64,000 bases of DNA from an uncultured Nitrospiraceae bacterium (GTDB taxonomy: Bacteria; Nitrospirota; Thermodesulfovibrionia; Thermodesulfovibrionales; SM23-35). Position 1 is the first letter of the stretch. Every line of letters starts with the position of its first letter. The stretch spans positions 83,583-147,582 of the forward strand of contig CAVRAA010000006.1 of NCBI GenBank assembly GCA_963718855.1. Direction: 5' to 3'. A program made the position numbers and the translations under genes. Under the pieces are notes generated by a model. That model did no database searches. It saw nothing but the letters and a program-made list of their open reading frames with translations, and was not told the DNA's origin. This document shows positions 4,181-54,819 of this stretch, piece after piece.

Positions 4181-4200
4181 ATATATCCGTTCGTCGTCTT

Positions 4201-5979: not shown

Positions 5980-6443
5980 TATTCGGATGTTTTCAGTTTC
6001 TTTACTTCTTTCATCAATTTATCGAGGGTCACTTTTCCGTGTACTTCATGATTGACAATCGTGACAGGGGCGATACCGCAGGCGCCGATACAGTTCACCT
6101 TTTCAACGGTGAATCTGTGATCAGCGGTGGTGTCGTCATCGGGAGGGATATCGAGTTCAAGGGAAAGCCTGTTTATCAGCCTTTCAGAACCCTTTACATG
6201 GCAGGCGGTGCCGCGACAGACGGTGATGATGTTTTTTCCCCTCGGCTTCAGGTGAAATTGAGAGTAGAATGTGGCAGTGCCGAAGAAACGACTTGCGGGA
6301 ATGTCGAGTTGTTTTGAAAACCAGGTTACTGCATCTTCAGGAATATAACCGAAATGGTGCTCGATATCCTGGAGGATAGTGATGATGTTTCCATCGTTTT
6401 CCTGATAGTGCTTCAGTATTTTCCAGAGAGTTTCTTCCATCAC
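5979..6443 (-). CDS. NuoE/HndA-like thioredoxin-fold [2Fe-2S] subunit
   Basis: 154 aa with CRGTACHVKG...CIGACGIAPV, the NuoE-type four-Cys pattern. Its stop overlaps the start of the NuoF-like gene. Confidence 0.85.
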   Translation of the reverse strand: MMEETLWKILKHYQENDGNIITILQDIEHHFGYIPEDAVTWFSKQLDIPASRFFGTATFYSQFHLKPRGKNIITVCRGTACHVKGSERLINRLSLELDIPPDDDTTADHRFTVEKVNCIGACGIAPVTIVNHEVHGKVTLDKLMKEVKKLKTSE

Positions 6444-12779: not shown

Positions 12780-14246
12780 CTAAAACCTGTCCTGTACCCC
12801 GAACGGGTCCTTGATCTCCATCGAGGGAGTGAACTTGAGTTTCTTTTCGCCTCTTTCCTCCAGGTATTTTTTGAGCTCAAGGTCTACCTTAACAGGAACA
12901 TCCACTCCTGCCTTGGCCAGCGCCTGTCTGAGCAGGCCTTCTGCCTTGCCTGCAAAGGCAAGTGAATCTCCCAGCACCCGCAGGGCTTCCGCAGGGTTAT
13001 GGAATCCGACAGAGTTTTCAGCGCCGATGAAATTCATACGGAGGAAGGCTTCGTCGTAATATTCTTTTGCCTTGTCGTACAGTGCTTTATCGATAACCTT
13101 GCCGGCAGTCTGCAGGCTGTGGGCTTTTTCAAAGAGCTTCGCCACCGTTGCAGTTGCATACCCGGCGCGAAGCATAAGAGATACAGTCCTGTCCTGAATG
13201 GCTTCCACCTGTGCCCTTAACCACTCTGCACTTTCGGAATGACACTGTATACAGGCCCTTAAATCTGTCTTTAAAGGACTTGTGACACGGTGGTTCGATA
13301 CTTTGTACGCGCCGACTTTTGTATACGGCATATGGCAGTCCGCGCATGCAGCACCTGCCTTATAGTGGATGCTGTTATAGGTAAACAGTTCATACTCGGG
13401 ATGACGAATAAACGGCATTTTGAACCCCGTTACATTCTGTTTCCACTCAAGAACAGACGGGTCGCTGCGTAATTTTTTGATGATATTCTCGATGGAAATA
13501 TTTCCCATATTGCTTCCCTGCCATGGGAAATAGATACCGACCGAGTTCATTTCCTGATCCTTGATGATATTGTAGGTGACATGACACTGGGCACAGACAA
13601 TGGTCCTCAGTTCCTGACGGGTCAATTTCTCCGGTTCGACCCTCATTTCTTTCAAAGCAGCGTTCAGGACAAACCCTCTCGATATGGCGAGTGACATATC
13701 TTTATTGTTATGGCAGTCGATACAGGCCACCCCGAGTTTTTGAAACTGTTCCGGAATTTTGGCATGGACGTCCTTGAAAGGCATTTTGTAATAGTCGGCG
13801 CCCATCTCTTTTTCGAGCCTCGGAGCATAAGGGGTTTTACACGTAAGGCAGACGCCTCCGGCCTTTACCCTTCCCGCCGCGATATCAAGCTGGTCGATTA
13901 CCATGTATGCATGCCCGCGGGGTTCGTTGTACTCTATACCGAAACCCCATCCGTTGAACAATAATGCCATAAAAGGAAACTCTGACAGTTTATCGTAAAT
14001 GATTTTGTCCGCATCAAAACCCCTTTTATACTTGCTCTTTCCGGCTTCCGTGGGTTCCTCCGTCATTTTCCAGAGGTCGTAATGGATCGGATAAGCCTTC
14101 CCCCAGTTGGCAGGATCGACATCGCCGTCCGCAATCTTCACGGGCCTTACCGGTTCCGTTTTCTGAGGAGGACAACCGTACAGAGAAAGCAGCGCTATGA
14201 TACTGACAGCCAGAACTCCCGATACAAGATACTTCTTACTTTTCAT
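12780..14246 (-). CDS. nrfA: Pentahaem cytochrome c nitrite reductase
   Basis: 488 aa with a signal peptide. It has CLTCK (the diagnostic CxxCK haem) plus CIDCH, CAQCH, CADCH and CIQCH. Confidence 0.9.
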   Translation of the reverse strand: MKSKKYLVSGVLAVSIIALLSLYGCPPQKTEPVRPVKIADGDVDPANWGKAYPIHYDLWKMTEEPTEAGKSKYKRGFDADKIIYDKLSEFPFMALLFNGWGFGIEYNEPRGHAYMVIDQLDIAAGRVKAGGVCLTCKTPYAPRLEKEMGADYYKMPFKDVHAKIPEQFQKLGVACIDCHNNKDMSLAISRGFVLNAALKEMRVEPEKLTRQELRTIVCAQCHVTYNIIKDQEMNSVGIYFPWQGSNMGNISIENIIKKLRSDPSVLEWKQNVTGFKMPFIRHPEYELFTYNSIHYKAGAACADCHMPYTKVGAYKVSNHRVTSPLKTDLRACIQCHSESAEWLRAQVEAIQDRTVSLMLRAGYATATVAKLFEKAHSLQTAGKVIDKALYDKAKEYYDEAFLRMNFIGAENSVGFHNPAEALRVLGDSLAFAGKAEGLLRQALAKAGVDVPVKVDLELKKYLEERGEKKLKFTPSMEIKDPFGVQDRF

Positions 14247-31790: not shown

Positions 31791-32789
31791 CTACTTTGCC
31801 TTTCCCCATGTCTTGTCAGGATCATACTTTGTCATCGCTTTTGCGATTTTTGCTGTATTGTTCCCCAGGTCTTTTTGATAGACCACACCATCATGGTTTA
31901 CGATAAAGGTCATCACGCCGGAGTTGCCGTATTTCGAGGGGTAGGCAACAACCGCGAATCCGCCGATCATATTACCCTTAATTACATAGTCGTAGGCGCC
32001 TCCGGGAGCATTTTTCCCCTGCGCCTTAATAATTCTGAAGTAGTAGCCATGGTACGGCACAGGGCCTTTTTTATCCTTTTTGGAATATCCCTCAGCCTTT
32101 GCCTGTACCAGCAGTTGGCCAAGCGGACTCGGTTCCTCACCGTCTTTTGTCGCCCAGTACAGTCCGTTCTTCTTGCCGGGGTCGCTGGCGAATTTCTCGG
32201 CATACTCATGAAGATTGTCTCCGTCGCGGTCCATTATCGCGTATTCCCTTTGCGCATCAACAATAGCGAGGCATGTCTGGATCGTGAGAAGTTCGTTTTC
32301 GCCAATCCTGCGGTTCAAAACCTCTTCTTTTCCTTTCTGCGTATCGAAAACCCATGTTTCCCCTTTTTTGACGATGGGGATAGGGAAGGGCCAGTCGTTC
32401 TTTCCGATTATAAGGATCGTGCTGTTACCCTCACGTACCAGTTTGTTCTGTTCATCGTATTTCGCAAGGAAGTTCTCCCGCCTCTGCTTATCTGCAACCT
32501 TGTCCCCTGAGGAGATCAAATCCTTTGCATCAGCCCCGAAGATTGACGACATTTCATTGTTGTCGTTATTTCGTCCAGCGGTAATAAGTGCTTTCACCGC
32601 TTCTTCCGGGGAAGCGAATGACTTCTGTTTTGCTGCGGCAAACGAAGTGCCGGCAAGGGTCATCATGACTACCATGGTTACAGCAATACTAAAGGCATAC
32701 AACGCCGATATCCGTCTAACCTGTATTCCCGGAAGTCTCATTCCTTCCTCCTTCAACTGTTTCATTATGGTTGCTATCGATATTGACAT
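31791..32789 (-). CDS. DUF2950-family secreted protein
   Basis: Real start MSISIATIMKQ at 32789 with RBS GGAAGGAGA. Conserved stretches include RRIGENELLTIQTCLAIVDAQREYA, GLYWATKDGEEPSPLG, PYHGYYFRIIKAQG and GVMTFIVNHDGVVYQKDLG. The 80-aa R/W-rich N-terminal extension in the track ORF is spurious. Confidence 0.8.
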   Translation of the reverse strand: MSISIATIMKQLKEEGMRLPGIQVRRISALYAFSIAVTMVVMMTLAGTSFAAAKQKSFASPEEAVKALITAGRNNDNNEMSSIFGADAKDLISSGDKVADKQRRENFLAKYDEQNKLVREGNSTILIIGKNDWPFPIPIVKKGETWVFDTQKGKEEVLNRRIGENELLTIQTCLAIVDAQREYAIMDRDGDNLHEYAEKFASDPGKKNGLYWATKDGEEPSPLGQLLVQAKAEGYSKKDKKGPVPYHGYYFRIIKAQGKNAPGGAYDYVIKGNMIGGFAVVAYPSKYGNSGVMTFIVNHDGVVYQKDLGNNTAKIAKAMTKYDPDKTWGKAK

Positions 32790-32791
32790 GG

Positions 32792-34017
32792 TTATCTCCT
32801 TCCGCCGCCACCGCCGCCGCGTCCGCCGCCGCCACCGCCACGGGAACCACCGCCACCGCCACTGGATCCGCCGCCAAACCCTCCGCTGCCACGGGAACCG
32901 CCGCTGAATCCGCCACCGCCTGACATGCTTTGACGGCTGGAACTTCCCCGGCTGCTGAAGTCTCTTGCGCTGCTTCCGCCGCGGTCCATGCCGCTGAATG
33001 CTCCGCCCGCCCCTGTTGAGCGCCTCCACCGCAGAGCGTCTGCGCTTGCCCGACTGATCCCTTCGACAAGTCCTGCCTCCCTGCTCTGCCCGTCCACGGT
33101 ATGCATCTCGCGAGGCAGCTTGTGCTGAAGTCCCCTTGTTGTACTTCTGGGCTGTGGTGTTATCCCTGTAGGCAGCTCCTTTTCTGTTTTCGGATTATGC
33201 TGCCATTGCTGTCTGCCGCCCTGTGACCCCCTTGCTTTTGATACTGGGTAGCCTGGTCTTTGTTGTAATTGTTTTTTGTGAAATTATTGCTATTGTTGAT
33301 ATCAATATCTACGTCACCATGCCCCCAGTTGGCGTTTCCCCAGCAGCATCCCGAGGAACCTACCGCAACTCCTGCCATGAACCCGAATGTGGCTGCTGCC
33401 ATTCCATATCCCGGGGGATAATAGGGATATGGCGGATATGCCGGATATGCCCATGTCCCGTATACAACTGTTGGGCTATAGCTGGGGACATAGATCACCT
33501 GGGGATTTGCGGGCTGTATGATTACTGTCTCCTTTTCGACTATCACGATCTGCTGTTGTGTGGTTTTCAGATTGCCGGACTCTTGCGCTTTTTTACGCAG
33601 GCGCTGGACAGAATCCATGACGTCCTTCTGCTGCGCAAGGAACGCATCTCCCATCTTAGTTGTCCAGTCGAGTTTATCGCTCATCATGGCGAGTACTTCA
33701 GGAAACTGAAGCAGTGATTTTACGGTCGGGTCCCAGTCCTCATTCTTGGCTGCTTCTAAAAGCTTGTCACCCTTGAGGTCCTTGTTCTTTTTTGCGAATC
33801 TGTCTGCCTGAACGATCTCGATGGGATATGTCGTAGCCATGAGTACTTGCACAAGGAGCGAATCGGGGTAGAGCGCTATAGGCGCAAGCATCTGGTCCAG
33901 TTCCTCCTGTTTGAAGACTTTTTTTGTCTCATCCTGTCCTGACGCCCCTGTCGGCACGATTAAAATGAGCGCAAGGACAAGGACCAGTGCACATGAAAAC
34001 ATCTCTTTGGTTTTCAT
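32792..34017 (-). CDS. DUF3300-family secreted protein with a Gly/Arg-rich tail, with at least three apparent frameshifts
   Basis: LDQMLAPIALYPDSLLVQVLMATTYPIEIVQADRF...WDPTVKSLLQFPEVL. The conserved WQHNP, GAAYRDNTTAQKY and GGGGFSGGSRGSGGFGGG...GRGGGGGGRR* segments lie in three different frames between 33070 and 33235. Two shifts coincide with a C5 run (33227-33231) and a T4 run (33180-33183). Confidence 0.75.
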
Positions 34018-39500: not shown

Positions 39501-40505
39501 CTATTTCATTTTCTCTTGGAGTTCCCGCACTGTCTTCATTGTGCTGTTGACCTTAGTGAAATCAAACCAGGTCTCGTTTTCAACGGGTAAACTCAGATTG
39601 CTCCCGTACACCCTCCAACCGTCATGGTAAATGGCTACGTCTTTGTACCCAAGCGCCCTGAGCACAAGGTATGTGTATGCAGCCCGTCCCCCCGTCTGGC
39701 AATACGTGATCACGCGAGTATCGGAAGGTATGTCTTTGTAAAACGATTTCAGCTCTGAGAGCGGCAGCATACGATACGACTCGGGATTGAAGTTCTTGGA
39801 ATGGTCTATGTTAACCGCTTTCGGAATGTGACCTCCGCGCAAGGCCCCTACGTTGGTCCCTTCGTACTCAGCAGTCGTTCTCGCATCGACAATAACCGCC
39901 TTTTTCTTTCCGTCGACCACCTTCATTACTTCATTGGCATTCACACCTCTCCTTGCGCCTGGTGCGGCTTTGAACACAATCGGCCTGGTTTTAGTCTCCA
40001 CCTGTTCGAGTTTGCCACCCTCTGATTGCCATCGTTCGACGCCGCCGTCATAGAAATGTACAGTGCATTTGGCAAGTGAGCTGTTACATCCGATTGTTTC
40101 AAGGACCCAGAACATTACTGCGTTCAAACCTGTTCTGCTTGGCGAGCCATACACGATGACATGGCTCTCATTTCCGATCCCCATCTCGCCAATAGCCTTT
40201 TCCAGGCGAGGGAGCACCGTTGCGGACCGCTTCGTGTCATCGGCATAGAGTTTCGATATCCATCCCGGCAGAAGCACAGCCCCGGGTATATGCCCTTCTC
40301 TATATTCGTCGGGAAACCTTACGTCCATGATCACCCAATCAGGTTTGCCGATTTTATCATTGAGGAAGGCAGTGTCGACAATCAGGGCCACTGCCTTTTC
40401 GGATGAAAAGGCAGTGGAGGAGCACAGGATGAATACAGAAAAAAAGATCACAACCACTCTCATTGCATTGCTTCTGATGGTTGCTTTCATATTTGTTCTG
40501 TCCAT
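39501..40505 (-). CDS. Periplasmic tandem-rhodanese sulfurtransferase (SseA/TST-like)
   Basis: Start MDRTNMKATIRSNAMRVVVIFFSVFILCSSTAFS (signal peptide). It has two rhodanese domains and the active-site loop YCQTGGRAAY. Confidence 0.8.
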   Translation of the reverse strand: MDRTNMKATIRSNAMRVVVIFFSVFILCSSTAFSSEKAVALIVDTAFLNDKIGKPDWVIMDVRFPDEYREGHIPGAVLLPGWISKLYADDTKRSATVLPRLEKAIGEMGIGNESHVIVYGSPSRTGLNAVMFWVLETIGCNSSLAKCTVHFYDGGVERWQSEGGKLEQVETKTRPIVFKAAPGARRGVNANEVMKVVDGKKKAVIVDARTTAEYEGTNVGALRGGHIPKAVNIDHSKNFNPESYRMLPLSELKSFYKDIPSDTRVITYCQTGGRAAYTYLVLRALGYKDVAIYHDGWRVYGSNLSLPVENETWFDFTKVNSTMKTVRELQEKMK

Positions 40506-40534
40506 AATACTTTCCTTTCGGTTGGTTGTCTGGT

Positions 40535-41381
40535 TCACGGCACGTAGTTGGCAAGGTCATCGAAGCCGGTGCCCTCGTAGGTGTTGCCCAACTCGTCACG
40601 AATGATGGAGGCCCAGAGGCCGGTGCGACGGGTTTCCAGGGAAAGGTCCTTGGTGAGCACCTTGGTCTCGAACTTCCAGCCCTGCGGGAGCTTTTTCAGC
40701 TTGCTACCCACCGTGTTGAGGTTGTCGATGGTGAGGGTCGGGTCGACGGCCTTTGTGTATTCCTGCATAACCCAGACCGATGCCCCCTGGCTCGCGCAGC
40801 AGGTAAACCGGCTTTCCCGCCTTGTAGATCCAATTGGTGTCGCGCAGGATCTTTGCGGGCACGTAATTGGCGCCGAACTGGGAGCGAAGCTCCTCACCGG
40901 TCATGTCGCCGGCCCAGCACATCTTGACGCCTTGGAAATCGACGACCTCGCCAACGCGCATGTCTATTTGATCCATGGTCCAGTGACGTCCTACGTTGCC
41001 CATGAATGCAGTGACACCAGCGCCAAGCTCAGCCGCCTGCTTCTTGGCGTCGATCTTCTCTATGCTCCCTGGAATGAGCTTCCCGCACGATGTCGCTGTA
41101 TAGACATGAGCTCTTTCATTCCGGCCCGTGCCGACCATGACGGCAGCTCCGCCAAATGCCATTCCACGGGTGTTGGTGATGTGACGCCGTTCACCCTTCG
41201 GACCAATGTTAAGCTTCACCTTTCTCGCTCCTTTTGGCTCGGTGGGTACCTTCTTATCCTCGGCTGAGGCTGATGCTAAGCCTGTACCAATCCCTGCTGC
41301 TACTCCTGCCATAACAATACTGGCTGTTTTCACGAAATCACGACGGGTAATGAATGATGATTCCTTCTTCTTGCTATCCAT
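40535..41381 (-). CDS. Tat-signal periplasmic protein of unknown family, copy A (one apparent frameshift)
   Basis: MDSKKKESSFITRRDFVKTASIVMAGVAAGIGTGLASASA carries a twin-arginine motif. ORFs 40704..41381 and 40535..40897 join as LLREPGG|..VWVMQEYTKAVDPTLTIDNL with a 1-nt change near 40778. The protein ends GFDDLANYVP. Confidence 0.7.
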
Positions 41382-41479
41382 GCTAATCTCCTTTCATGCG
41401 TTTTTTTGATGCAATTTGCCCGGCCTTCGTCTATCTTGCGGTCTCCTCCTTTCATAATCATTGTTGATCTCTGAGATAA

Positions 41480-41944
41480 TTACTTATTGGTGACTGTACA
41501 TTTAACATTAAGCTTTGTGCACACTTTATTAATGATGCGAAGTGCAAGCTCCTTTTCCTGCTCCGTTTCATATTCTTTTTCTTTGCCCTCAACCTTCGGC
41601 ACATCTGCTTTTACGATTACTTCCGTTGTTTCAGGGTTGATTGGTTCGGCCTTGAAGGAAGCTTTCTGAATATCATCTGTCACTTCGAACAGGAGTTTTT
41701 TATCATCCTGCTTCAGTATCTTCACCGCAGGCGCACGCTCTTCCGCCAGGGTAATGGCTGCACCATAGACTTTTTCTGCCGAAGCAGGAATCTGTGCTTC
41801 AGCGACATACCCTTCTTTGCTTTTTGCATAATGTATTGCCACCGGAATAGCGGCAATACAGGCAAAAAAGGAAATTGCCGTTACCCCCGTGATCAGATAT
41901 CCGAGAAGCTTCATTGTGACCCCAGAATTTGTTTTGTTGCGCAT
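41480..41944 (-). CDS. Small membrane-anchored protein, paralog 2
   Basis: MRNKTNSGVTMKLLGYLITGVTAISFFACIAAIPVAIHYAKSKEGYVAEA... with RBS AAGGAGGATAAG. Confidence 0.7.
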   Translation of the reverse strand: MRNKTNSGVTMKLLGYLITGVTAISFFACIAAIPVAIHYAKSKEGYVAEAQIPASAEKVYGAAITLAEERAPAVKILKQDDKKLLFEVTDDIQKASFKAEPINPETTEVIVKADVPKVEGKEKEYETEQEKELALRIINKVCTKLNVKCTVTNK

Positions 41945-41998
41945 TGTCTTATCCTCCTTGTTTTGCCATGATGATCTCCTTTCGGTTGGTTGTCTGGT

Positions 41999-42847
41999 TC
42001 ACGGCACGTAGTTGGCAAGGTCGTCGAAGCCGGCGCCCTCGTAGGTGTTGCCCAACTCGTCGCGAATGATAGAGGCCCAGAAGCCGGTGCGACGGCGTGT
42101 CCAGGGAAAGGTCTTTGGTGAGCACCTTGGTCTCGAACTTCCAGCCCTGCGGCAGGTTTTTCAGCTTGCTGCCCACTGTGTGGAGGTTGTCGATGGTGAG
42201 GGTCGGGTCGACTGTCCTTCGTATATTCCTGCATGACCCAGACGATGCCACCTGGCTCGCGCAGCAAGTACACCGGCTTGCCCGCCTTGAAGATCCAGTT
42301 GGTGTCGCGCAGGATCTTTGCGGGCACGTAATGTTGCGCCGAACTGGGAGCGAAGCTCCTCCCCGGTCATGTCGCCGGCCCAGCACATCTTGACGCCCTG
42401 GAAGTCGACGACCTCGCCAACGTGCATGTCGATTTCGTCCATGGTCCAGTGACGTCCTACGTTGCCCATGAATGCAGTGACACCAGCGCCAAGCTCAGCC
42501 GCCTGCTTCTTGGCGTCGATCTTTTCGATACTCCCTGGAATGAGCTTCCCGCACGATGTCGCTGTAAAGACATGAGCTCTTTCATTCCGGCCCGTGCCGA
42601 CCATGACGGCGGCTCCGCCAAATGCCATTCCTCGGGTGTTGGTAACGTGACGCCGTTCACCCTTCGGACCAATGTTAAGCTTCACCTTTCTCGCTCCTTT
42701 TGGGTCGCTGGGTACCTTCTTATCCTCGGCTGAGGCAGATGCTAAGCCTGTACCAATCCCTGCTGCTACTCCTGCCATAACAATACTGGCTGTTTTCACG
42801 AAATCACGACGGGTAATGAATGATGATTCCTTTTTCTTGCTATCCAT
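41999..42847 (-). pseudogene. Tat-signal periplasmic protein, copy B, with three 1-nt insertions relative to copy A
   Basis: The same N-terminus as copy A lies in ORF 42161..42847. The frame changes near 42335 (FGA|NYVPAKIL), 42215 (QEYTK|.VDPTL) and 42090 (SLDT|RRTG). Each change is a 1-nt insertion when aligned to copy A. Confidence 0.6.
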
Positions 42848-42946
42848 GCTGATCTCCTTTCATGCGTTTTATTTTTGATGCAATTTGCCCGGTCTTCGTC
42901 TATCTTGCGGTCCTCCTTTCATAATCATTGTTGATCTCTGAGATAA

Positions 42947-43411
42947 TTATTTATTGGTGACTGTACATTTAACATTGAGCTTTGTGCACACTTTATTAAT
43001 GATGCGAAGTGCAAGCTCCTTTTCCTGCTCCGTTTCATATTCCTTTTCTTTGCCCTCAACCTTCGGCACATCTGCTTTTACGATTACTGCCGTTGTTTCA
43101 GGGTTGATTGGTTCGGCCTTGAAGGAGGCTTTCTGTATATCATCTGTCACTTCGAACAGGAGTTTTTTATCATCCCGCTTCAGTATCTTCACAGCAGGCG
43201 CACGCTCTTCCGCCAGGGTAATGGCTGTGCCATAGACTTTCTCTGCCGGAGCCGGAATCTGTGCTTCAGCGACATACCCTTCTTTGCTTTTTGCATAATA
43301 TATTGCTACCGGAATGGCGGCAATACAGGCAAAAAAGGAAATTGCAGTTACCCCCATGATCAGATATCCGAGAAGCTTCATTGTGACCCCAGAATTTGTT
43401 TTGTTGCGCAT
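42947..43411 (-). CDS. Small membrane-anchored protein, paralog 3
   Basis: Start MRNKTNSGVTMKLLGYLIMGV at 43411, nearly identical to paralog 2. Confidence 0.7.
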   Translation of the reverse strand: MRNKTNSGVTMKLLGYLIMGVTAISFFACIAAIPVAIYYAKSKEGYVAEAQIPAPAEKVYGTAITLAEERAPAVKILKRDDKKLLFEVTDDIQKASFKAEPINPETTAVIVKADVPKVEGKEKEYETEQEKELALRIINKVCTKLNVKCTVTNK

Positions 43412-43508
43412 TATCTTATCCTCCTTGTTTTGATAAACCTCTATGGGTTTTGCTTCTTTTAGCTTCGTGATGTTACTCATACTGCAGTCACTGGTCCTCG
43501 CATAGTCA

Positions 43509-44351
43509 TTATTTCTTTGTTTGTTTTATTTTCTTCGTGTGATCCGGATGGCACATCAGGCAGTCCATATGCCCCTGCTGACTGTTAAGGCTTACTTTTT
43601 CATAAAACATATCGTCTGACCCATGGCATTTCCAGCAGTGAGCTATCTCCGGTTTAGGCGTCCATTTGGGAGGCGTCCATGTTCCGTCAAAGTAATCATT
43701 GAGATGCGCAACTACCTGATATACGACCTCACCCGCCACCTTGGCACAGCGCTCCTTTTTCTCTTTAGAATTTACTTTCGTTCCGGCAACATTAACCCAT
43801 TTCGATACCGACGTATGGCACAATGGCGTCATTGCCTTGGCCTTGACCTGTTTGGGAAAAGCAGAGATGTCATCAAACCGATCAGTGGGAAATTCCATCT
43901 CAGAGTACCCATACATCAGTCTGTCTACGAGCGGTGCATACGAGCCTTTGTTATCGTAAACGACCATATTGATAAGGTAAGAGCAGACACCAAGAACACC
44001 GCAGAGTGTGCCATGTCCACAGTAACCGGCCCCTGCATGTTCGAACATATAGTCCGGCAGGGTTGTCCATGGATAACCGACTTTCTCTTTCAAAAGGCTG
44101 GAGACCCCCAGCCACGCGCCATTCCCTCACCCTTTTTTCTCAAGGTAAGCGCGATAGGCTCGCCTGCCGGCCTCCAGCGGATCAAGCTTGACCCATTTCC
44201 AGGGCAATGGCGGGGCTTCAGCCACGGTTGGAGCCGGTGTCGATGCGAAGCTGGTACCGTGCCCTGCTATGCCTCCTGCCAGGAAGATGCCCAGTTTTGT
44301 TATGAAATTACGGCGGGAAAATAATGATGATTTCTCCTTGTTGCCATCCAT
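43509..44351 (-). CDS. Candidate selenoprotein: Tat-signal, C_GCAxxG_C_C-like domain, C-terminal di-haem cytochrome c (split-Soret-cytochrome-like architecture)
   Basis: Track ORFs 44127..44381 and 43509..44093 are in the same frame. They are separated only by TGA (44127..44129) and 11 sense codons. Read-through gives ...RAYRAYLEKKG-U-GNGAWLGVSSLLKEKVGYPWTTLPDY. Start MDGNKEKSSLFSRRNFITK at 44351 has RBS AAAGGAGAT. Other motifs are CGHGTLCGVLGVC, CWKCH and CLMCH. Confidence 0.65.
44096..44113 (-). other. SECIS-like hairpin downstream of the in-frame UGA at 44127..44129
   Basis: The minus strand reads UGA, then 13 nt, then GGCUGG-GGGUCU-CCAGCC (6-bp stem). The spacing and GGUCU loop core match the fdhA hairpin at 3066..3080. 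Confidence 0.6.
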
Positions 44352-44408
44352 GATGATCTCCTTTCTTTGTTTGTCGCTCACAATCGTGAGAACATAAAAC
44401 CAAATACC

Positions 44409-44753
44409 TCACGAATCCTGTTTCAGTGTACTGTCAACTCTTATGGCCTCAATCAATTCAATGCCCGTTGTTTCTGAACCTTCGTGAATACAGATTTCAG
44501 GTGGTTCGCTGGAAAGTTCAATGGCGTTTAAAACCCTGAGATAAAGCTTCGACCGAATATGCTGATACATAGCTTCCCTGGTTTGCCACTTTTCAATATA
44601 AAGAATCTTTTGCCCATCACCATGCTCTTCATAAATTTCGCAATTTGTGCATGAGGGTTTTAAACGGGTCATGTTTTTTACAGACACGAGGACCTCAATG
44701 ACCGCTTGCCGTTTGTCGGGCATTGGGTCTATTCTGATGGATGCAATAATCAT
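44409..44753 (-). CDS. ABM (antibiotic biosynthesis monooxygenase-like) ferredoxin-fold protein
   Basis: 114 aa. MIIASIRIDPMPDKRQAVIEVL...LYIEKWQTREAMYQHIRSKLY follows the typical ABM pattern. Confidence 0.6.
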   Translation of the reverse strand: MIIASIRIDPMPDKRQAVIEVLVSVKNMTRLKPSCTNCEIYEEHGDGQKILYIEKWQTREAMYQHIRSKLYLRVLNAIELSSEPPEICIHEGSETTGIELIEAIRVDSTLKQDS

Positions 44754-44769
44754 AATCTGAGAATATATA

Positions 44770-44784
44770 ACAAGATTGATGCCA
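44770..44784 (-). promoter_or_regulatory. Possible sigma-54 promoter (TGGCAT-N5-TTGT) upstream of the ABM gene
   Basis: The minus strand reads cTTGGCATcaatcTTGTtatat with correct -24/-12 spacing, but GT replaces the conserved GC at -12. It lies only ~17 nt from the ATG at 44753, leaving almost no leader. Confidence 0.3.
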
Positions 44785-44900: not shown

Positions 44901-46466
44901 TTAGTCGATATAACGTCCTTTCTCGCGGTTTGTTGGAATGCCGAGTTTTTCCATTTTGGCATACAGAGTAGAAGGTTTCAGCCCCAGCAACTCCGCTGCG
45001 CCAATTCGTCCTTTAATCCGCCACCCGGTTTTTTCCAGGGCTCTTATTATGTGCTGGCGTTCGGCTTTTTCGAGTGTGACCATCTCTGTAACGCTTCCCG
45101 AAAGCCTTTGAGGCAAGTTCACCTGAAGCACATCACCGTCAGTGATGATGACTGCCTGTTCTATGACATTACGCAACTCACGGACATTTCCGGGCCATTG
45201 ATATTGTTTCAGCATTTCCATCGTACTTTCAGGCACTATGTGAATCTTGTTCCCCAATTTTCCTGAGAACTCATTGAGAAATGAATGAACCAGGAGGGGG
45301 ATGTCTTCCCGGTGCTCCCTCAGTGGGGGTACCTCAATAGGGAATACCTTAAGACGGTAATACAGATCTTCCCTGAATGTTCCCTTCTTCACCGCTTCTT
45401 CCAGATTGCGGTTTGTCGCTGCTATCACACGCACATCAATATGGATGGTTCTCGGGCTCCCGAGCCTCTCGAATGCCCCGTCCTGGAGAACACGTAGCAG
45501 CTTGGCCTGAAGTTCAAGCGGCAACTCCCCGATTTCATCGAGAAAGATAGTCGAACCGTCAGCCAGTTCAAACCGTCCGATTTGTTTGGCCAAAGCACCT
45601 GTATATGCGCCTTTTTCCCTGCCGAACAGTTCACTCTCTATGAGAGCAGACGGCAGGGAAGCACAATCAACCTTCACCAGAACACGATTGCTCCGCTTGC
45701 TGTGACAATGAATAGCACGGGCAATCAATTCTTTGCCGGTGCCGGTTTCTCCTGTTATTAAAACAGTGGATTCTGTTTGCGCAACCTTCTTTGCCTGAGC
45801 CAGAACCTTTTGAGAGCAGTCGCTTTCGCCGACTATCTCTTCATGGACACACTGAAGCTTGGCTTCATCTCTAAGGTAGATATTCTCTTTTTCGAGGCGT
45901 TCTTTGAGCTTTTCAATCTCAAGTAAGCGCTCCCGGAGTTGCCCCTCCTTATTTCTGCGCTCCAAGGCATTGATAAATATTTCACCTAAAAGCTGCAACC
46001 GCGGAACGTATTCCTCGGGCCAGGAGCGTTCTCGACGAATGGCATTGAGACAGATGAGGCATGAGACCTTCCCGGCAATGAACAGTGGAATATTCAGGAA
46101 GGACAGGATGCCCATGGCAGTTCCATTCGCCCTGTCCTGCTTTGCGCTCTCAGGCAGGTCTTTCAATCGTGAAATAGAGACTGCTTGTTTCTCCACAACG
46201 ACCTTTTCATAGAGCCATGGGTATAGCTTGGCGAGTTCAATATCTCCGGACACTCGCTCGATACCATCGGCAGAGGCCGTATGAGTAACATACACTCGTG
46301 TCCTGTCAGGAGAAACCCCTATCAGACTGCAGCGGTCAACCTGAAAAAAATCGAGCAGCTGCCCCAGCGCATTCTCAATTTCTCCATCAACGTGGTCAGC
46401 GGCCACATTTACGAAACGGGCAGAGAGGGCCGAAATGAGCTGTTCAAAACTAAGGTGCTCATTCAT
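44901..46466 (-). CDS. Sigma-54-dependent transcriptional activator with an N-terminal GAF domain (GAF, AAA+, Fis-type HTH)
   Basis: 521 aa with LITGETGTGKELIARAIH, ESELFGREKGAYTGA (a GAFTGA-loop variant), RLKVFPIEVPPLREHREDI, and the C-terminal AAELLGLKPSTLYAKMEKLGI. Confidence 0.9.
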   Translation of the reverse strand: MNEHLSFEQLISALSARFVNVAADHVDGEIENALGQLLDFFQVDRCSLIGVSPDRTRVYVTHTASADGIERVSGDIELAKLYPWLYEKVVVEKQAVSISRLKDLPESAKQDRANGTAMGILSFLNIPLFIAGKVSCLICLNAIRRERSWPEEYVPRLQLLGEIFINALERRNKEGQLRERLLEIEKLKERLEKENIYLRDEAKLQCVHEEIVGESDCSQKVLAQAKKVAQTESTVLITGETGTGKELIARAIHCHSKRSNRVLVKVDCASLPSALIESELFGREKGAYTGALAKQIGRFELADGSTIFLDEIGELPLELQAKLLRVLQDGAFERLGSPRTIHIDVRVIAATNRNLEEAVKKGTFREDLYYRLKVFPIEVPPLREHREDIPLLVHSFLNEFSGKLGNKIHIVPESTMEMLKQYQWPGNVRELRNVIEQAVIITDGDVLQVNLPQRLSGSVTEMVTLEKAERQHIIRALEKTGWRIKGRIGAAELLGLKPSTLYAKMEKLGIPTNREKGRYID

Positions 46467-49637: not shown

Positions 49638-50930
49638 CTATTTCATGCTGTCCAGCTTTATGACCAGCGGGCCCTTTACAGCATCCATGATGTATGATGC
49701 AGGAAGGCCGTTTTCGAGTAATTGAGTCATAGCCTGAAGGTATTTCCTGATATGAAAAAAGAATTTTTTATATCCTTCACAGAGGTAATGGAGTCCTGGT
49801 TCCTTATAGTGCGTCATGGAAAAACGATGCTTGGGACACCCTCCCTGACAGGCAGCCAGCACCCCGCACTCCCTGCACCAGCGCGGCATGGCTGTTTCCT
49901 TGGAGATGCCGAAGCCCGATTGCAGAGATTGCTCAACCATCCCTGATAGCGTGTCGGTTCTGATATTGCCGAGCCTGTAATCCGGGTATACGCAGTGGTC
50001 GCAGGCATAGACATCTCCGTTGTGTTCGATCGCGACTGAACGACCGCATTGTTTCGCATGGATGCAAACAGGCGAAGGGTTACCGATCCAGGCATTCAAT
50101 GCCCACTCGAAGTTCGTTACGAAGATATTGCCGACATCATTGCGCACCCATTCTTCATAAACGGCGATCAGGAAATCGCCGTATTCCTCCGGGATGACAG
50201 TCCACGGAGTGACTCCGGTCTGCTCATCCCCTGTACTCAAAGAAGCGGGGCCGGCGAGACGAAGGCCTATCTGTCTGCTTGATGAATCGGGCATGCGTTC
50301 CACTACCGGCGAAAACTGGATGAACTCGACCCCTTCATCTTTAAAAAAACGGTATACCTCAAGCGGACGTTGTGCGGTTTCACGGGCGACACAGGCAAGC
50401 ACATTGTATTCAACACTATGTTTTTGCAGAAGCCTCAGTCCCTGCATACCCCTGTCAAAAGTCCCTTTGCCCTTGCGGTCTCGGCGATAACGGTCATGAA
50501 CTTCTTTTGGCCCGTCAATACTGATACCAACCATAAAATTATGCTTCTTAAGGAAGGCACACCATTCATCGTTGAGCAGTGTTCCGTTGGTCTGGACTGA
50601 ATTGGTGATAATCTTTGTCCCTGAAAACTGCTTCTGGAGTTCAATTACCTTCTTGTAAAAATTAATCCCTAATAATGTCGGTTCTCCGCCCTGCCACACG
50701 AATTCAACGATCGGGGTGGGTTGTGACGTGATGTAGTTGGTAATAAAAGCGGAAAGTACATCATCGGTCATTCGGTACTGTTCGTTAGGACCGAAGAGCT
50801 TCTGCTTCTCAAGATAAAAGCAATACTCGCAATTGAGATTGCAGACAGGCCCGATGGGCTTGGCTACTACGTGGATGCCGTGGCCGGTGCCTTTATTTCG
50901 TGTATTTGTATTTTCTGTTTGACCAGTCAC
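49638..50930 (-). CDS. Anaerobic sulfatase-maturating enzyme (radical SAM/SPASM)
   Basis: 430 aa with a GTG start, CNLNCEYCFY (Cx3Cx2C), and C-terminal SPASM cysteines CIHAKQC...CDHC...CRECGVLAACQGGC. Confidence 0.9.
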   Translation of the reverse strand: MTGQTENTNTRNKGTGHGIHVVAKPIGPVCNLNCEYCFYLEKQKLFGPNEQYRMTDDVLSAFITNYITSQPTPIVEFVWQGGEPTLLGINFYKKVIELQKQFSGTKIITNSVQTNGTLLNDEWCAFLKKHNFMVGISIDGPKEVHDRYRRDRKGKGTFDRGMQGLRLLQKHSVEYNVLACVARETAQRPLEVYRFFKDEGVEFIQFSPVVERMPDSSSRQIGLRLAGPASLSTGDEQTGVTPWTVIPEEYGDFLIAVYEEWVRNDVGNIFVTNFEWALNAWIGNPSPVCIHAKQCGRSVAIEHNGDVYACDHCVYPDYRLGNIRTDTLSGMVEQSLQSGFGISKETAMPRWCRECGVLAACQGGCPKHRFSMTHYKEPGLHYLCEGYKKFFFHIRKYLQAMTQLLENGLPASYIMDAVKGPLVIKLDSMK

Positions 50931-51034
50931 TTTACAGAACCAATCTAAAAGTCAGGAAGAAAAGGCTGCCGGCCTCTTCTTCCTGACGAGTGTCTACTGT
51001 TTAGTCAGACATTGCCTTCTTGTGAGCGGCTTCC

Positions 51035-53425
51035 TTATGGCCCTTCTCGACCTGCTGCCTTTTCCGGAGCAATCATCGGCTTGACCTCGACCATTACCTT
51101 TTTGATATGGCCCGTAAAGCGCGACTTCGCTTCCGACCCGATCTCCTCGACGACCGGCGTGCCGAGGTCGATGCCCACATCGGCCGTCTCGTCAGCCGAG
51201 AACATCCCAGCCTGGGTATGCTCGATTCGTCCTTCGGCGACCTTCTCATCATTAACGAAGAGGGTGCCGGTGCCTCCCTTGCCGGGTCCGCCGCCGTCAT
51301 AGGCAAAGTCGAACTTGATCGTTGCCTTGCCGGGGGCAAGCGGCTTGGTGGAAGCGACCGAGAAGCGCATCAGGCCCAGGAAATTGTAGTCGTAGGCGGG
51401 GATGTTGTCCTTCACATACAACGACCAGCCGCCGAAGCGGCCGCCCTGCGCGATGATGGTGCCGTTGGCGCGGCTTGCAGGCACCTCGATTTCGGCGGTG
51501 ATTGTCTTGGACTTGTTCTTTACGTTGATGAAGACGTTTTCCATCATCCCGGTCATTCCCTCGGCCAGCGTCAGGGAGGTCCGGCCGGCCATCAGGTCGG
51601 GGCGATTCACCATCGCGGCGCTCATACGCTCAAGCACGCGATCATCGATGGGCAGCACATGATGCTGCTCGGCTTCTTTCATGAAGAGTTCCTGCATCTC
51701 TGCCAGCTTCTTCGGATTCTTTGCGGCAAGGTCGTTGGACAGGCTGAAATCAGAGCGCACGTCATAAAGCTCCCACACATCCTTATCCAGGGTCGTACGC
51801 GGCTTGTACTCCCACGGTGCCCTGTGGATGATGCGGGCAATCCAGCCGTCGTGGTAGATGGCACGGTTGCCGGCGATCTCAAAATACTGCGTGTTGTGAC
51901 GTTCCTTTGCCCTGGCGTCATCAAAGGTGTAGGCCATGCTTACGCCTTCCATCGGGACCTGTGGCGTACCGTTGACCACCTTCGGCTCTGGCAGCTTGGC
52001 GGTCTCCAGGATGGTCGGTGCAACGTCTATCACGTGCGTGAACTGGCTGCGCATCTCGTTCTTTGCCTTAATCCCCATGGGCCAGTGGATGACCATCCCG
52101 TTACGGGTGCCGCCGAAGTCCGAGGCGACCTGCTTGGTCCAGGTGAACGGCGAGTCCATGGCAACAGCCCAGCCGGAGGCATAGTGCGGGTAGGTCTCGG
52201 GTCCGCCCCACTTGTCCGCCACCTTCAGCATGTCTGTCACCTTTTCAGGCACGCCGTTGAAGTAGGTGTACTCGTTGAACATGCCGTTCTCGCCACCTTC
52301 GGCGCTGGCGCCGTTGTCTCCGGCGATGTAGAAAACGAGCGTGTTGTCGGCCTGGCCGGTCGCCGCTACCGCTTCGAGCATCCGGCCGATCTCGCTGTCC
52401 GTGTACTCAAGATAGGCGGCGAACACTTCCATCTGACGGGCATACAGTCGCTTCTCGTCGGCAGAAAGCTTATCCCAGTCCCTGATCGCTGCCGGCTTCG
52501 GAGCCAGCTTGGTGTCTGGAGGGATGATCCCGGCCTTGAGCTGCCGTGCAAAGGTCTCCTCGCGCATCTTGTCCCAGCCTCCGTCAAACTTGCCTTTCCA
52601 CTTTGCGATCCACTCCTGGGGCACATGGTGTGGCGCGTGCGTGGCCCCCGGCGCGAAGTAGACGAAGAACGGCTTGTCAGGCGTCATGGCCTTCTGGTAC
52701 TTTATCCAGGCCACCGCCTTATCGGTCATGTCGGTCATGAAATGGTAGTTCGGATCGTTCGGCAATTCGACCTGCGTCACCCCATCAAACAGGTACGGCG
52801 CCCACTGGTTCGTCTCGCCGCCGATGAATCCGTAGAACTTGTCGAAACCCTGGTGAGTGGGCCAGCGGTCAAAGGGGCCGGAGACGCTGGTTTCCCATGC
52901 CGCAGTCTCATGCCATTTGCCGAAGGCCGCGGTGCTGTAGCCGTTCAGTCGCAGCATTTCCGCCACCGGCGCAGTCGCGTTGGGGATCTGGCCAGTTGCG
53001 CCCGGGAAGCCGGTCCCCATCTCGGTGATGAATCCCATGTTCACGGTGTGATGATTGCGGCCGGACTTGAGTGCAGCGCGCGTCGGCGATGAAAGTGCGG
53101 TGGTATGAAAATTGGTGTATCGCAGTCCATTCTTGGCCAGACGCTCAAGCGTCGGTGTGGGGATCGGGCCGCCATACGTTCCGGTTGCCCCGAAGCCCAG
53201 ATCGTCGATCAGGATGATGACCACGTTCGGCGCTCCAGCGGGCGCTTTGACCTCGAAGAGCGGCGGCATCTTCGCGTTCCGCGCATCCAATTCCTTGTAC
53301 ACAGGCCGCTTCGGCTCCTGGATCGGCAGCGTTGTGCGGTCCGGAACGGTCTGCGCTGCAGCAGTTGCAGCATACGCCGTACCCAGCGCAAGGCTGATAA
53401 CGCTATGAACAGTTGTTCTCTTCAT
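51035..53425 (-). CDS. Large Ser-type arylsulfatase with a signal peptide
   Basis: Start MKRTTVHSVISLALGTAYAATAAAQ at 53425 has RBS GGAGGAAG. Sulfatase motifs are VIILIDDLGFG and TTALSSPTRAALKSGRNHH, where S-x-P-x-R gives a serine-type FGly site. The gene is much more GC-rich than its neighbours. Confidence 0.85.
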   Translation of the reverse strand: MKRTTVHSVISLALGTAYAATAAAQTVPDRTTLPIQEPKRPVYKELDARNAKMPPLFEVKAPAGAPNVVIILIDDLGFGATGTYGGPIPTPTLERLAKNGLRYTNFHTTALSSPTRAALKSGRNHHTVNMGFITEMGTGFPGATGQIPNATAPVAEMLRLNGYSTAAFGKWHETAAWETSVSGPFDRWPTHQGFDKFYGFIGGETNQWAPYLFDGVTQVELPNDPNYHFMTDMTDKAVAWIKYQKAMTPDKPFFVYFAPGATHAPHHVPQEWIAKWKGKFDGGWDKMREETFARQLKAGIIPPDTKLAPKPAAIRDWDKLSADEKRLYARQMEVFAAYLEYTDSEIGRMLEAVAATGQADNTLVFYIAGDNGASAEGGENGMFNEYTYFNGVPEKVTDMLKVADKWGGPETYPHYASGWAVAMDSPFTWTKQVASDFGGTRNGMVIHWPMGIKAKNEMRSQFTHVIDVAPTILETAKLPEPKVVNGTPQVPMEGVSMAYTFDDARAKERHNTQYFEIAGNRAIYHDGWIARIIHRAPWEYKPRTTLDKDVWELYDVRSDFSLSNDLAAKNPKKLAEMQELFMKEAEQHHVLPIDDRVLERMSAAMVNRPDLMAGRTSLTLAEGMTGMMENVFINVKNKSKTITAEIEVPASRANGTIIAQGGRFGGWSLYVKDNIPAYDYNFLGLMRFSVASTKPLAPGKATIKFDFAYDGGGPGKGGTGTLFVNDEKVAEGRIEHTQAGMFSADETADVGIDLGTPVVEEIGSEAKSRFTGHIKKVMVEVKPMIAPEKAAGREGP

Positions 53426-53478
53426 GTTCTTCCTCCAATTCTTTCGGGGTTGACCACAATCCGTCTTTCCCCCAATCA

Positions 53479-54819
53479 CTAAAAAATCACCTGAAGCCGG
53501 AGGCCGACAACCGTCGCTGTATGAACGTCTTTTTTCCTGCTGTCAAGTACCTGCTCGCTGTCGATCTGCAGCCTGTCTTTCTGTGCAGGTCTGATTATCT
53601 GTATGTCCGGCGTTAACTTCATCCATGGAGTTAACGCTATATTGTAGTAAGCTTCAACTCCGTATTCGTCACGAAAAAACTCTCTGTCCGCAAGCAGCCC
53701 GGTGAATTCGGGATTGCTCATATCAATATAATAGAACCCTGCTCCGAATTCGTCCGTGGTTCTGCCGGGGACGACTCCCTTTCCGCCGAGCCCTACGCTG
53801 TAGAAATAGTGGATAGGGTTAGCGTCTCCGTCAGATGCACCAAATCTGCCGAAAACACCTACACCTTGCCCTTTCTTCGGTTCATATATGTACTGATCGA
53901 AGTTATAGAAAAACGCCCAGGAGTCGTCTTCTTTTTTTATCGTGCTTTTATCGATAAGTATGCGCAGGCTTTGATCAAGGGAAGAGAAGTCCTTGCCGGA
54001 ATAGGTCGCACCCACGAGTTGATGGCCTGTCATCCCGAAAAAGTCTGTCCTGACACGCCCCTCGATTGCGTAGGTATTATTTCCTTCGAATGCAGTATCA
54101 AACCCACTCGTGTTCGCCCTTCCATTTGAATCAATAACCATCATGGTTATGACAGCCTGTTTGGGATCTTTCGTCGGAAGGATGATAATCCCTGCGCCAA
54201 GCGTTGAACTGGGAACAGTCAGAAGTAAAGCAGGATTGATATTGAATGCCAGATTGAAAAACTGCTTATCTCCTTTTCCGTGGGCAAATTCATTTGCATC
54301 TCCCGAGGTTGTATCAAGTTTTCCAAGAGTGACACCGAAATAGTGAGAAAGGAACTGGGTGAATTTTACCTCGGGAATATTCAATTCCCGTTTTCCCGGA
54401 GTAGGGAACAGCTGGTTTGCATTCACCGGCATGATTGAGCCGGTGTCCGGGTTTATGGGTTTGTTGTAATTCCCTTCGACTTCAACTGTGAAAAATCCTC
54501 CGGGCCACAAACCCATTTTCTGGGTGTCCATATGAAGTGTGAGGTTGCCACGTCCGGTATACTCCCAGCCCTGATTCTTGCCTCCGCTGATAACGCTCTG
54601 CCCGATCTGGGTCAGGTTAATGTCGAACTTTATTCCCTTTGCAGCCCATTCATTGCGTGTAGCACCCCAATCACCTGTCATAGTTGATCGGGACCAGAAA
54701 TCTCCTGAATATGACGTAGTGTCAGAACCCCCGGCTGCTCCAGCCTGAACAGTGAGGACTATCCCCAGCAGGAATACAAGCATTACAGTGCTCATAAATC
54801 GTTTCGTCGTACTTTTCAT
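53479..54819 (-). CDS. OprB-family (carbohydrate-selective) porin
   Basis: 446 aa with a signal peptide and a beta-barrel ending ...GLRLQVIF. Its stop abuts the region just upstream of the sulfatase gene. Confidence 0.65.
   Translation of the reverse strand: MKSTTKRFMSTVMLVFLLGIVLTVQAGAAGGSDTTSYSGDFWSRSTMTGDWGATRNEWAAKGIKFDINLTQIGQSVISGGKNQGWEYTGRGNLTLHMDTQKMGLWPGGFFTVEVEGNYNKPINPDTGSIMPVNANQLFPTPGKRELNIPEVKFTQFLSHYFGVTLGKLDTTSGDANEFAHGKGDKQFFNLAFNINPALLLTVPSSTLGAGIIILPTKDPKQAVITMMVIDSNGRANTSGFDTAFEGNNTYAIEGRVRTDFFGMTGHQLVGATYSGKDFSSLDQSLRILIDKSTIKKEDDSWAFFYNFDQYIYEPKKGQGVGVFGRFGASDGDANPIHYFYSVGLGGKGVVPGRTTDEFGAGFYYIDMSNPEFTGLLADREFFRDEYGVEAYYNIALTPWMKLTPDIQIIRPAQKDRLQIDSEQVLDSRKKDVHTATVVGLRLQVIF

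Follow-up and report, generated by a model that had tools for sequence, protein, structure and literature searches.

We report on a gene for a split-Soret-cytochrome-c-like protein of 280 residues in which an in-frame UGA at residue 75 very probably encodes selenocysteine (Sec). The gene lies in a 64,000-nucleotide (nt) stretch of DNA, referred to throughout as the window, from an uncultured Nitrospiraceae bacterium (GenBank assembly GCA_963718855.1, contig CAVRAA010000006.1, positions 83,583 to 147,582). Comparison with related genes shows that the UGA occupies a Sec/Cys pair position and that the RNA hairpin accompanying it is under selection at the RNA level. We regard the comparative case for a real selenoprotein gene as strong.

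One gene interrupted by an in-frame UGA

The gene is on the minus strand and its features are collected in Table 1. The open reading frame (ORF) track divides the locus into two pieces, which the initial annotation had taken to be parts of a single frame. Reading the sequence bears this out: the frame from 44381 to 43509 contains a single internal stop, the TGA at 44129..44127, and between this TGA and the TTG at 44093, which the ORF track chose as the start of the downstream piece and which is not a true methionine codon, there are 11 sense codons (G N G A W L G V S S L). Read-through from the ATG at 44351 yields 280 residues with U at position 75, in the context AYLEKKG-U-GNGAWLGVSSLLK. The other elements attributed to the read-through product are all present, namely a twin-arginine translocation (Tat) signal (SRRNFITK...TSFAS), the motif GYCGHGTLCGVLGVC and the haem c sites CWKCH and CLMCH.

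The start codon is preceded by a Shine-Dalgarno sequence, and a like arrangement is seen in two related loci, L001 and L002, where aaaggaga or aaaggaaa stands before the ATG. Comparison with homologues shows that the frame is conserved on both sides of the UGA. Because haem c sites require export and the only signal peptide is encoded upstream of the UGA, the two pieces make up a single exported gene; 44351..43509 is one gene specifying one polypeptide.

Table 1. Features of the selenoprotein gene, its immediate surroundings and the fdhA comparator (window coordinates)
Feature	Position	Strand	Details
Complete gene, split-Soret-cytochrome-c-like selenoprotein (predicted)	43509..44351	-	280 residues; ATG 44351; Sec codon at residue 75; TAA stop 43511..43509
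Shine-Dalgarno GGAG	44358..44361	-	6 nt before ATG 44351; read from the sequence
Tat signal peptide (predicted)	44244..44351	-	residues 1-36; S-R-R-N-F-I-T-K, hydrophobic LGIFLAGGIAG, SFA-S
N-terminal C_GCAxxG_C_C-type domain	43707..44204	-	about residues 50-215; four invariant non-haem positions U75, C117, C178, C202
In-frame UGA, putative Sec codon	44127..44129	-	residue 75
SECIS hairpin GGCUGG-GGGUCU-CCAGCC (candidate)	44096..44113	-	5' arm GGCUGGG 44113..44107; loop GGUC 44106..44103; 3' arm UCCAGCC 44102..44096
Haem c site 1, CWKCH	43623..43637	-	residues 239-243; C239, C242, H243 invariant; aligns with SCGECH of 1H21
Haem c site 2, CLMCH	43548..43562	-	residues 264-268; C264, C267, H268 invariant; aligns with DCTPCH of 1H21
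ABM-domain gene, small	44753..44409	-	precedes the selenoprotein gene
Sigma-54 activator with GAF domain	46466..44901	-	upstream
fdhA Sec codon and SECIS hairpin	3066..3096	-	UGA 3096..3094; UGGCC-GGUCU-GGCCA 3080..3066; canonical context U-HSSSLAGLATVFGSGAMTNSI; 13-nt spacing

UGA and cysteine forms of the gene

Homologues were sought with the two ORF pieces joined by C at residue 75. Against 5.8 billion proteins this query had 481 matches. Among the best 120 of these, 118 are full-length proteins of about 280 amino acids (aa), and all 118 have Cys at the UGA column, so that the homologues are single polypeptides with a residue aligned to the UGA, as the first reading of the locus had supposed. 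No full-length Sec form occurs among the best 120 of the 481 database matches. The two closest matches, P0060 (84% identity) and P0105 (82%), are called as fragments of 178 and 177 aa; the contigs of both carry TGA in frame at this codon and, after it, the hairpin seen in the window gene, and the fragment cluster of P0060 holds 215 sequences.

Genome and metagenome scans tell the same story at the nucleotide level. Of 56 loci from the genome scan, 54 match the gene region, and in the 52 of these where the site could be read the codon is TGA in 17 and TGC or TGT in 35. From 274 metagenomic relatives the best 80 were examined, 78 could be parsed, and TGA is present in 78 of 78. In all, 97 further genes carry TGA at exactly this codon, 17 from genome assemblies (metagenome-assembled genomes, MAGs) and 80 from metagenome contigs, which upholds the earlier argument that the TGA is not a homopolymer artefact. 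Two JGI contigs from other assemblies (L059 and L060), 95% identical in amino acids and 92% in nucleotides over this gene and the next, keep the TGA.

The 17 genome assemblies with the TGA form, LT984854, CAVOPT01 and CAVQRT01 among them, belong to Thermodesulfobacteriota and Nitrospirota, and the carriers include Syntrophobacteraceae, Desulfobacteraceae, Desulfobacterium sp. TRIP AH-1, other 'delta proteobacteria', Nitrospirota/Thermodesulfovibrionales and Ca. Deferrimicrobiaceae. Cys codons are found in Gamma- and Betaproteobacteria, Acidobacteriota, Spirochaetota and others. When a neighbour-joining tree is rooted on 1H21, the structure of split-Soret cytochrome c in the Protein Data Bank (PDB), the TGA forms make up one clade beside the Cys forms; they are of single origin. 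The clade is common in Thermodesulfobacteriota and Nitrospirota of wetland, peat and sediment, and at least 98 public genes have been split in two by gene callers and are to be joined as one selenoprotein each. Long-read MAGs labelled 'MFD' are frequent among the closest genome relatives.

A conserved hairpin follows the UGA

A hairpin beginning 13 nt past the UGA had been likened to a selenocysteine insertion sequence (SECIS). When the 40 nt after the UGA are folded with RNAfold, the minimum-free-energy structure is this very hairpin, with 7 bp, a GGUC loop that begins 20 nt past the UGA, and -11.8 kcal/mol. RNAalifold applied to 20 UGA-form sequences gives the same helix as consensus (columns 17-23 with 28-34, 96.4% of cells paired).

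For a wider comparison we folded the 98 UGA genes, which represent 65 distinct 42-nt segments, and 35 Cys-codon orthologues, which represent 32. A hairpin of at least 5 bp, usually 7, stands at the same place in 65 of 65 distinct UGA segments, so the expectation that UGA-bearing orthologues would keep it holds in every case. The 35 orthologues with TGC or TGT lack it at the aligned segment, and mean local dG is -11.4 kcal/mol for the UGA forms as against -2.9 kcal/mol for the Cys forms. The apical loop of E. coli fdhF carries the essential G-U of GGUC; here, G occupies the first two loop positions in 63 of the 65 distinct UGA segments.

The codons that build the stem are frozen. Within the UGA clade L+6 is always CTG (14/14), G+7 always GGG (16/16) and S+10 always AGC (16/16), with a codon entropy of 0; elsewhere in the gene only 2 of 77 conserved 4-6-fold degenerate sites are without synonymous variation, and the mean codon entropy is 1.27 bits. 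Where the amino acids do change, the stem persists. Three loci (L068:1467-1508, L075:2720-2761 and L076:1179-1220) encode W-A-G-F-S-S (TGGGCTGGATTTTCCAGCC) and not W-L-G-V, and keep the GGCUGG/CCAGCC stem shifted by one nt relative to the codons, with a U-rich loop from which the usual G is absent. In L082 and L083 stem replacements lead to G-U and U-G pairs, and the two pairs next to the loop switch between G-C and G-U as the amino acids vary (VS, VL, YS, FT). The locus is thus a clean case of an RNA signal constraining a coding sequence, through frozen synonymous sites, stem-preserving amino-acid changes and a one-nt register shift.

We also observed that in many Cys orthologues (e.g. L042:6073-6115 and L044:6079-6121) the residues L-S-L-L-S-L are encoded by CTGAGCCTGCTCAGC, which forms a weak palindrome of 5 bp where the Sec forms have their SECIS, the 3' arm CUCAGCC being common to both. 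This palindrome may be raw material for SECIS evolution; if the scheme proposed below is correct, the SECIS may derive from such a pre-existing element.

Selenocysteine decoding and alternative readings of the UGA

The window contains its own comparator. As had been pointed out at the outset, the Sec site of fdhA (1438..4261, minus strand) has the same layout as the cytochrome gene, and both have 13 nt between UGA and hairpin with GGUC(U) in the loop. The fdhA gene is broken by many frameshifts and its Sec site is intact. Because a canonical fdhA UGA with its hairpin is present, the organism decodes Sec, in agreement with the initial annotation. The fdhA SECIS gives a weak match to the Rfam model SECIS_3 (22.5 bits, E 0.0057). 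NuoF-like (4201..5979) and NuoE-like (5979..6443) genes come after fdhA.

Several observations do weigh against assigning Sec to the UGA of the cytochrome gene. (i) None of selA, selB, selC and selD was found in the 64-kb window, where the only tRNA gene is for tRNA-Pro, and none is among the 30 ORFs scanned against Pfam. (ii) No Rfam SECIS model matches the candidate hairpin, even at E <= 10; the Rfam bacterial SECIS models appear to be gene-specific. (iii) The hairpin is no stabler than dinucleotide shuffles of the same G-rich composition (z 0.17 for 40 nt and 0.83 for 76 nt), and for this reason we do not use thermodynamic significance as evidence. (iv) Neither RNAalifold nor pair counting over the 20 UGA forms found a compensatory double change at any base pair. 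(v) Two of the 65 distinct segments have a UUU loop without G when folded for maximum pairs. (vi) The case for Sec at residue 75, as for the single polypeptide, comes from sequence comparison, a point on which both a two-gene reading and a read-through without Sec can draw. The helix is, then, conserved and not covarying, its support coming from conservation, the G-C/G-U switches and the register shift. That it is more than chance is shown by comparison and not by thermodynamics, since it is present in all 98 UGA genes, absent from 35 Cys orthologues and built on invariant synonymous sites in the stem.

It is conceivable that the UGA is read through without Sec, as near-cognate Trp or Cys or under a variant code, and that the hairpin only stimulates read-through; that the genes for the Sec machinery are not in the window fits with this. 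We hold this scenario to be very unlikely for the following reasons: (i) the code is standard, TGA being an ordinary stop in the window, where 9 of the 34 ORFs that reach 250 aa or more terminate with it; (ii) the UGA replaces an invariant Cys, a classic Sec/Cys pair; (iii) its spacing and loop copy those of the fdhA SECIS of the same genome; and (iv) the carriers belong to Thermodesulfobacteriota and Nitrospirota, groups rich in selenoproteins (PMC13188914). An alternative genetic code was rejected on account of the regular use of TGA as a stop in the window.

Another possibility is that the UGA is a true stop, either between two genes (one for a 74-residue Tat-signal peptide and one for a separate protein of 194 residues) or within a decaying pseudogene. 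Gene callers do split the locus, both here and in public data, where P0060 and P0105 are cases in point. However, both halves are in frame and conserved as protein in 98 genes from two phyla, and the homologues are single proteins. After the UGA there is no conserved start or Shine-Dalgarno sequence, the called fragments beginning at differing internal Met or Leu codons, and the downstream part has two CxxCH sites and no signal peptide of its own. Two separate genes would, moreover, leave the hairpin and the frozen synonymous sites unexplained. There is very little probability left for a true stop; the pseudogene and two-gene readings are excluded by the frame conservation over 98 genes, the hairpin and the invariant stem codons.

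Finally, the notion that TGA is an error for TGC, TGT or TGG in a noisy long-read assembly, prompted by the many indel-type frameshifts in the window (in fdhA and in duplicated Tat-protein genes), can be dismissed almost entirely, as TGA recurs in 97 other sequences from independent projects, including the JGI contigs that are 92% identical in nucleotides, and the errors in the window are indels and not substitutions. The comparative data (L059 and L060 keep TGA) rule out a sequencing error at this locus, and the indels themselves look like long-read assembly noise.

A relative of split-Soret cytochrome c with predicted Tat export

The initial annotation saw in the protein a C_GCAxxG_C_C-type N-terminal domain followed by two haem c sites, and likened this order to split-Soret cytochrome c; profile and structure searches agree. 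The NCBIfam model NF047622 (split-Soret cytochrome c) matches residues 12-270, across the UGA, with 118 bits, which is short of its equivalog cut-off of 400. The sole significant PDB match by sequence is 1H21, the split-Soret cytochrome c (Ssc) of Desulfovibrio desulfuricans ATCC 27774, over residues 50-269 (E 3.4e-21, about 29% identity). In this alignment the UGA faces the Cys of 'GCGFGAF', and the alignment also matches the Cys of GTICG, VLCH and ERCG and the two CxxCH sites. The fold search used an AlphaFold2 (AF2) model of a Cys homologue 63% identical to the window protein (mean pLDDT 68, the haem region being poorly modelled), and 1H21 was again the only significant PDB match (E 1.4e-9, template-modelling scores 0.61/0.70). 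Given a score of 118 bits against an equivalog cut-off of 400 and about 29% identity, the protein is best regarded as a homologue from a separate paralogous family, neither Ssc itself nor an orthologue of it.

The twin arginines of the signal, R13 and R14, do not vary across 45 family members, three members match the Pfam TAT_signal family, and cleavage probably takes place after SFA. The conserved Cys of the N-terminal domain stand in the contexts GTLCGVLG (C117; GTLCGxLG in the family), PLCH (C178) and ERCA (C202). With Pfam PF09719 the window protein scores 23.3 bits, under the 27-bit cut-off. Since 44 of 44 Cys homologues scanned match PF09719 at E <= 0.01 (P0001 with 45.9 bits), we place the family in PF09719 on profile evidence, with the window sequence as a divergent member. 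Residue 111 (44019..44021, minus strand), six residues before the conserved GTLCG cysteine, is an additional Cys: the window protein reads GYCGHG, and homologues read GYGGHG or GYAGHG, with Gly or Ala at this place. The Cys may be either genuine variation or a substitution error.

A working model for synthesis and function

As the ribosome nears the UGA, a complex of SelB, GTP and Sec-tRNASec would bind the hairpin (7 bp, GGUC loop, 13 nt downstream) and would deliver Sec in place of the action of release factor 2, in the same arrangement as at the fdhA site of the window; this step follows the established bacterial mechanism. The product would be a periplasmic redox protein exported by the Tat system, in which the N-terminal C_GCAxxG_C_C domain precedes a C-terminal di-haem c region. 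As the twin arginine is invariant in the family, we infer that a cofactor is loaded in the cytoplasm before export, the two haems c presumably being received in the periplasm.

Homology suggests that the protein has a non-haem iron centre resembling the one in Ssc, and that Sec would replace the first of four invariant cysteines of the domain. Abreu et al. are said to have described the Ssc centre in 2003 as a [2Fe-2S]-type cluster held by conserved Cys of the N-terminal domain, beside stacked haems. The ligands in 1H21 we take to be the Cys of GCG, ICG, LCH and RCG. We give about an even chance to the possibility that Sec75 is a selenium ligand of the iron centre; should it not be a cluster ligand, it may instead be a reactive redox residue that tunes the centre. 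Caution is called for on three counts: a ligand role leans on a protein (1H21) that is about 29% identical, the aligned part of the 1H21 chain contains six non-haem Cys and not four, and the local PF09719 alignment begins at residue 85-86 (profile position 8-9), some 10 residues past U. The assignment of U75 as the first PF09719 Cys accordingly comes from counting and from the 42-residue spacing, and not from the Pfam alignment.

The full proposal, an undescribed subfamily of Tat-exported, split-Soret-type di-haem selenoproteins in which Sec ligates the iron centre or sits at a reactive position of it, is one that we put forward tentatively and think somewhat less likely to be right than wrong. 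If it is right, the periplasm of wetland and sediment anaerobes would contain a selenium-coordinated iron cluster wired to stacked haems. In any event, a natural Sec/Cys pair in the 'novel iron centre' domain of split-Soret proteins marks this residue as functionally critical, and matched Sec and Cys proteins are on offer for probing the function of the centre. With regard to physiology, a role in periplasmic electron transfer is probable, on slender grounds; a tie to the handling of sulfur compounds is a weaker suggestion, possible because rhodanese-domain genes recur nearby (see below).

Relation to known selenoproteins and cytochromes

It had been thought at first that neither PF09719 nor split-Soret cytochrome c was listed as a selenoprotein family. 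For the split-Soret-like architecture this seems to be so. For PF09719 it is not: as 'C-GCAxxG-C-C family protein' the family is catalogued as a selenoprotein in a 'form 1', on record since 2007, and a 'form 2' (PMC9312934, 2022; PMC13188914, 2026). 'C-GCAxxG-C-C family protein' (WP_012158890.1) and 'Putative redox protein' (KGM38912.1) are separate entries in the 2022 review (PMC9312934). Form 1 traces to the 'putative redox protein' of the Olavius algarvensis delta-1 symbiont (Zhang & Gladyshev 2007, where three genes of this kind are reported together with SECIS elements), and form 2 comes from the Global Ocean Sampling (GOS) data of 2008 (as catalogued in PMC9312934 and PMC13188914). KGM38912.1, MGD8741185.1 and WP_012158890.1 are the representatives named for PF09719 selenoproteins.

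The window protein resembles both forms in that it belongs to the same Pfam family, has a predicted Sec for a conserved Cys and a bacterial SECIS just downstream. The catalogue texts give no Sec position, motif, architecture, haem sites, Tat signal or mention of split-Soret proteins for forms 1 and 2, and the 2007 paper likewise states neither Sec position nor architecture. It is possible, as far as a comparison by catalogue description only can tell, that form 1 is this very clade, since NCBI names the Cys members of about 280 aa 'C-GCAxxG-C-C family protein' (P0075) and the Olavius symbiont is a sulfate-reducing deltaproteobacterium, from a group in which the present clade also occurs (L008, L009). 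In the paper library searched, no text pairs 'split-Soret' with 'selenocysteine', and the texts there on split-Soret cytochrome are not about selenoproteins. What we describe appears, therefore, to be a new, or at least undescribed, Sec member of a family already known for selenoproteins, with a split-Soret architecture that is unlisted.

Ssc of D. desulfuricans, reportedly isolated from nitrate-grown cells, is homologous over the whole mature protein, is periplasmic and has the same order of an N-terminal domain with conserved Cys and two CxxCH haem sites; it differs in that identity is about 29%, and it has Cys where the window protein has its putative Sec. No phenotype was found for Ssc in D. 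alaskensis G20 (PMC4215793). The likeness to FdhA, and to SECIS elements of the E. coli fdhF type, is that the hairpin lies inside the coding sequence. The stem is a different one, however, and SECIS_3 weakly matches the fdhA site and not that of the cytochrome gene; moreover, Sec of FdhA ligates Mo or W, whereas here it would sit in a domain with a putative iron centre. There is precedent for Sec in Fe-S motifs and in c-type cytochromes, in the 2Fe-2S-binding selenoprotein of the Csac_0668 family, the multihaem cytochrome ExtKL and an octahaem cytochrome of the tetrathionate reductase family (PMC13188914). In fold and family these are unrelated to the window protein, and none is of split-Soret type.

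Gene neighbourhood and other features of the window

Across 55 loci, the window counted, there is no fixed operon around the gene and only loose recurrences are seen. By raw counts over these loci the recurrent neighbours are rhodanese-domain genes (13), sigma-54 activators (4), OprB (3), DUF3300/DUF2950 (3) and ABM (2). The rhodanese-domain genes are of several kinds: the window has a two-domain form at 39501..40538 (minus strand), four loci have a periplasmic rhodanese (e.g. L041:9617-10282), and in nine a flavoprotein of the CoA-disulfide-reductase type is fused to rhodanese (e.g. L045:3196-4890). Downstream of the selenoprotein gene is a lipoprotein-like gene, which adjoins it likewise in L059 and L060. 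OprB porins are directly beside the selenoprotein gene in L002 and L041, and in the window an OprB-family porin (446 aa) forms a cluster at 49638..54819 (minus strand) with a sulfatase (814 aa) and a radical SAM/SPASM maturase (430 aa). A DUF3300 and DUF2950 pair is found at 31791..34017 (minus strand); in L008 and L009 this pair immediately follows the selenoprotein gene on its downstream side, and in L006 it is found upstream.

A scan of the window for sigma-54 promoters gave a match count at chance level. A sigma-54-like -24/-12 element, TGGCAT-N5-TTGTT, is present at 44769..44784 (minus strand), 16 nt upstream of the start of the ABM-domain gene and beside the activator gene. The window also has a tandem duplication (40636..41965 and 42101..43432, 95% identical over 1335 nt). 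Both copies contain a lipoprotein-like ORF of 154-177 aa, for which Pfam gave no match, together with a Tat-signal ORF; the latter runs for about 228 aa and goes on in other frames past frameshifts. Some 30 kb from the selenoprotein gene, a gene for a hybrid cluster protein (Prismane family, 10940..12568, plus strand) adjoins that for the cytochrome c552 nitrite reductase NrfA (12780..14246, minus strand).

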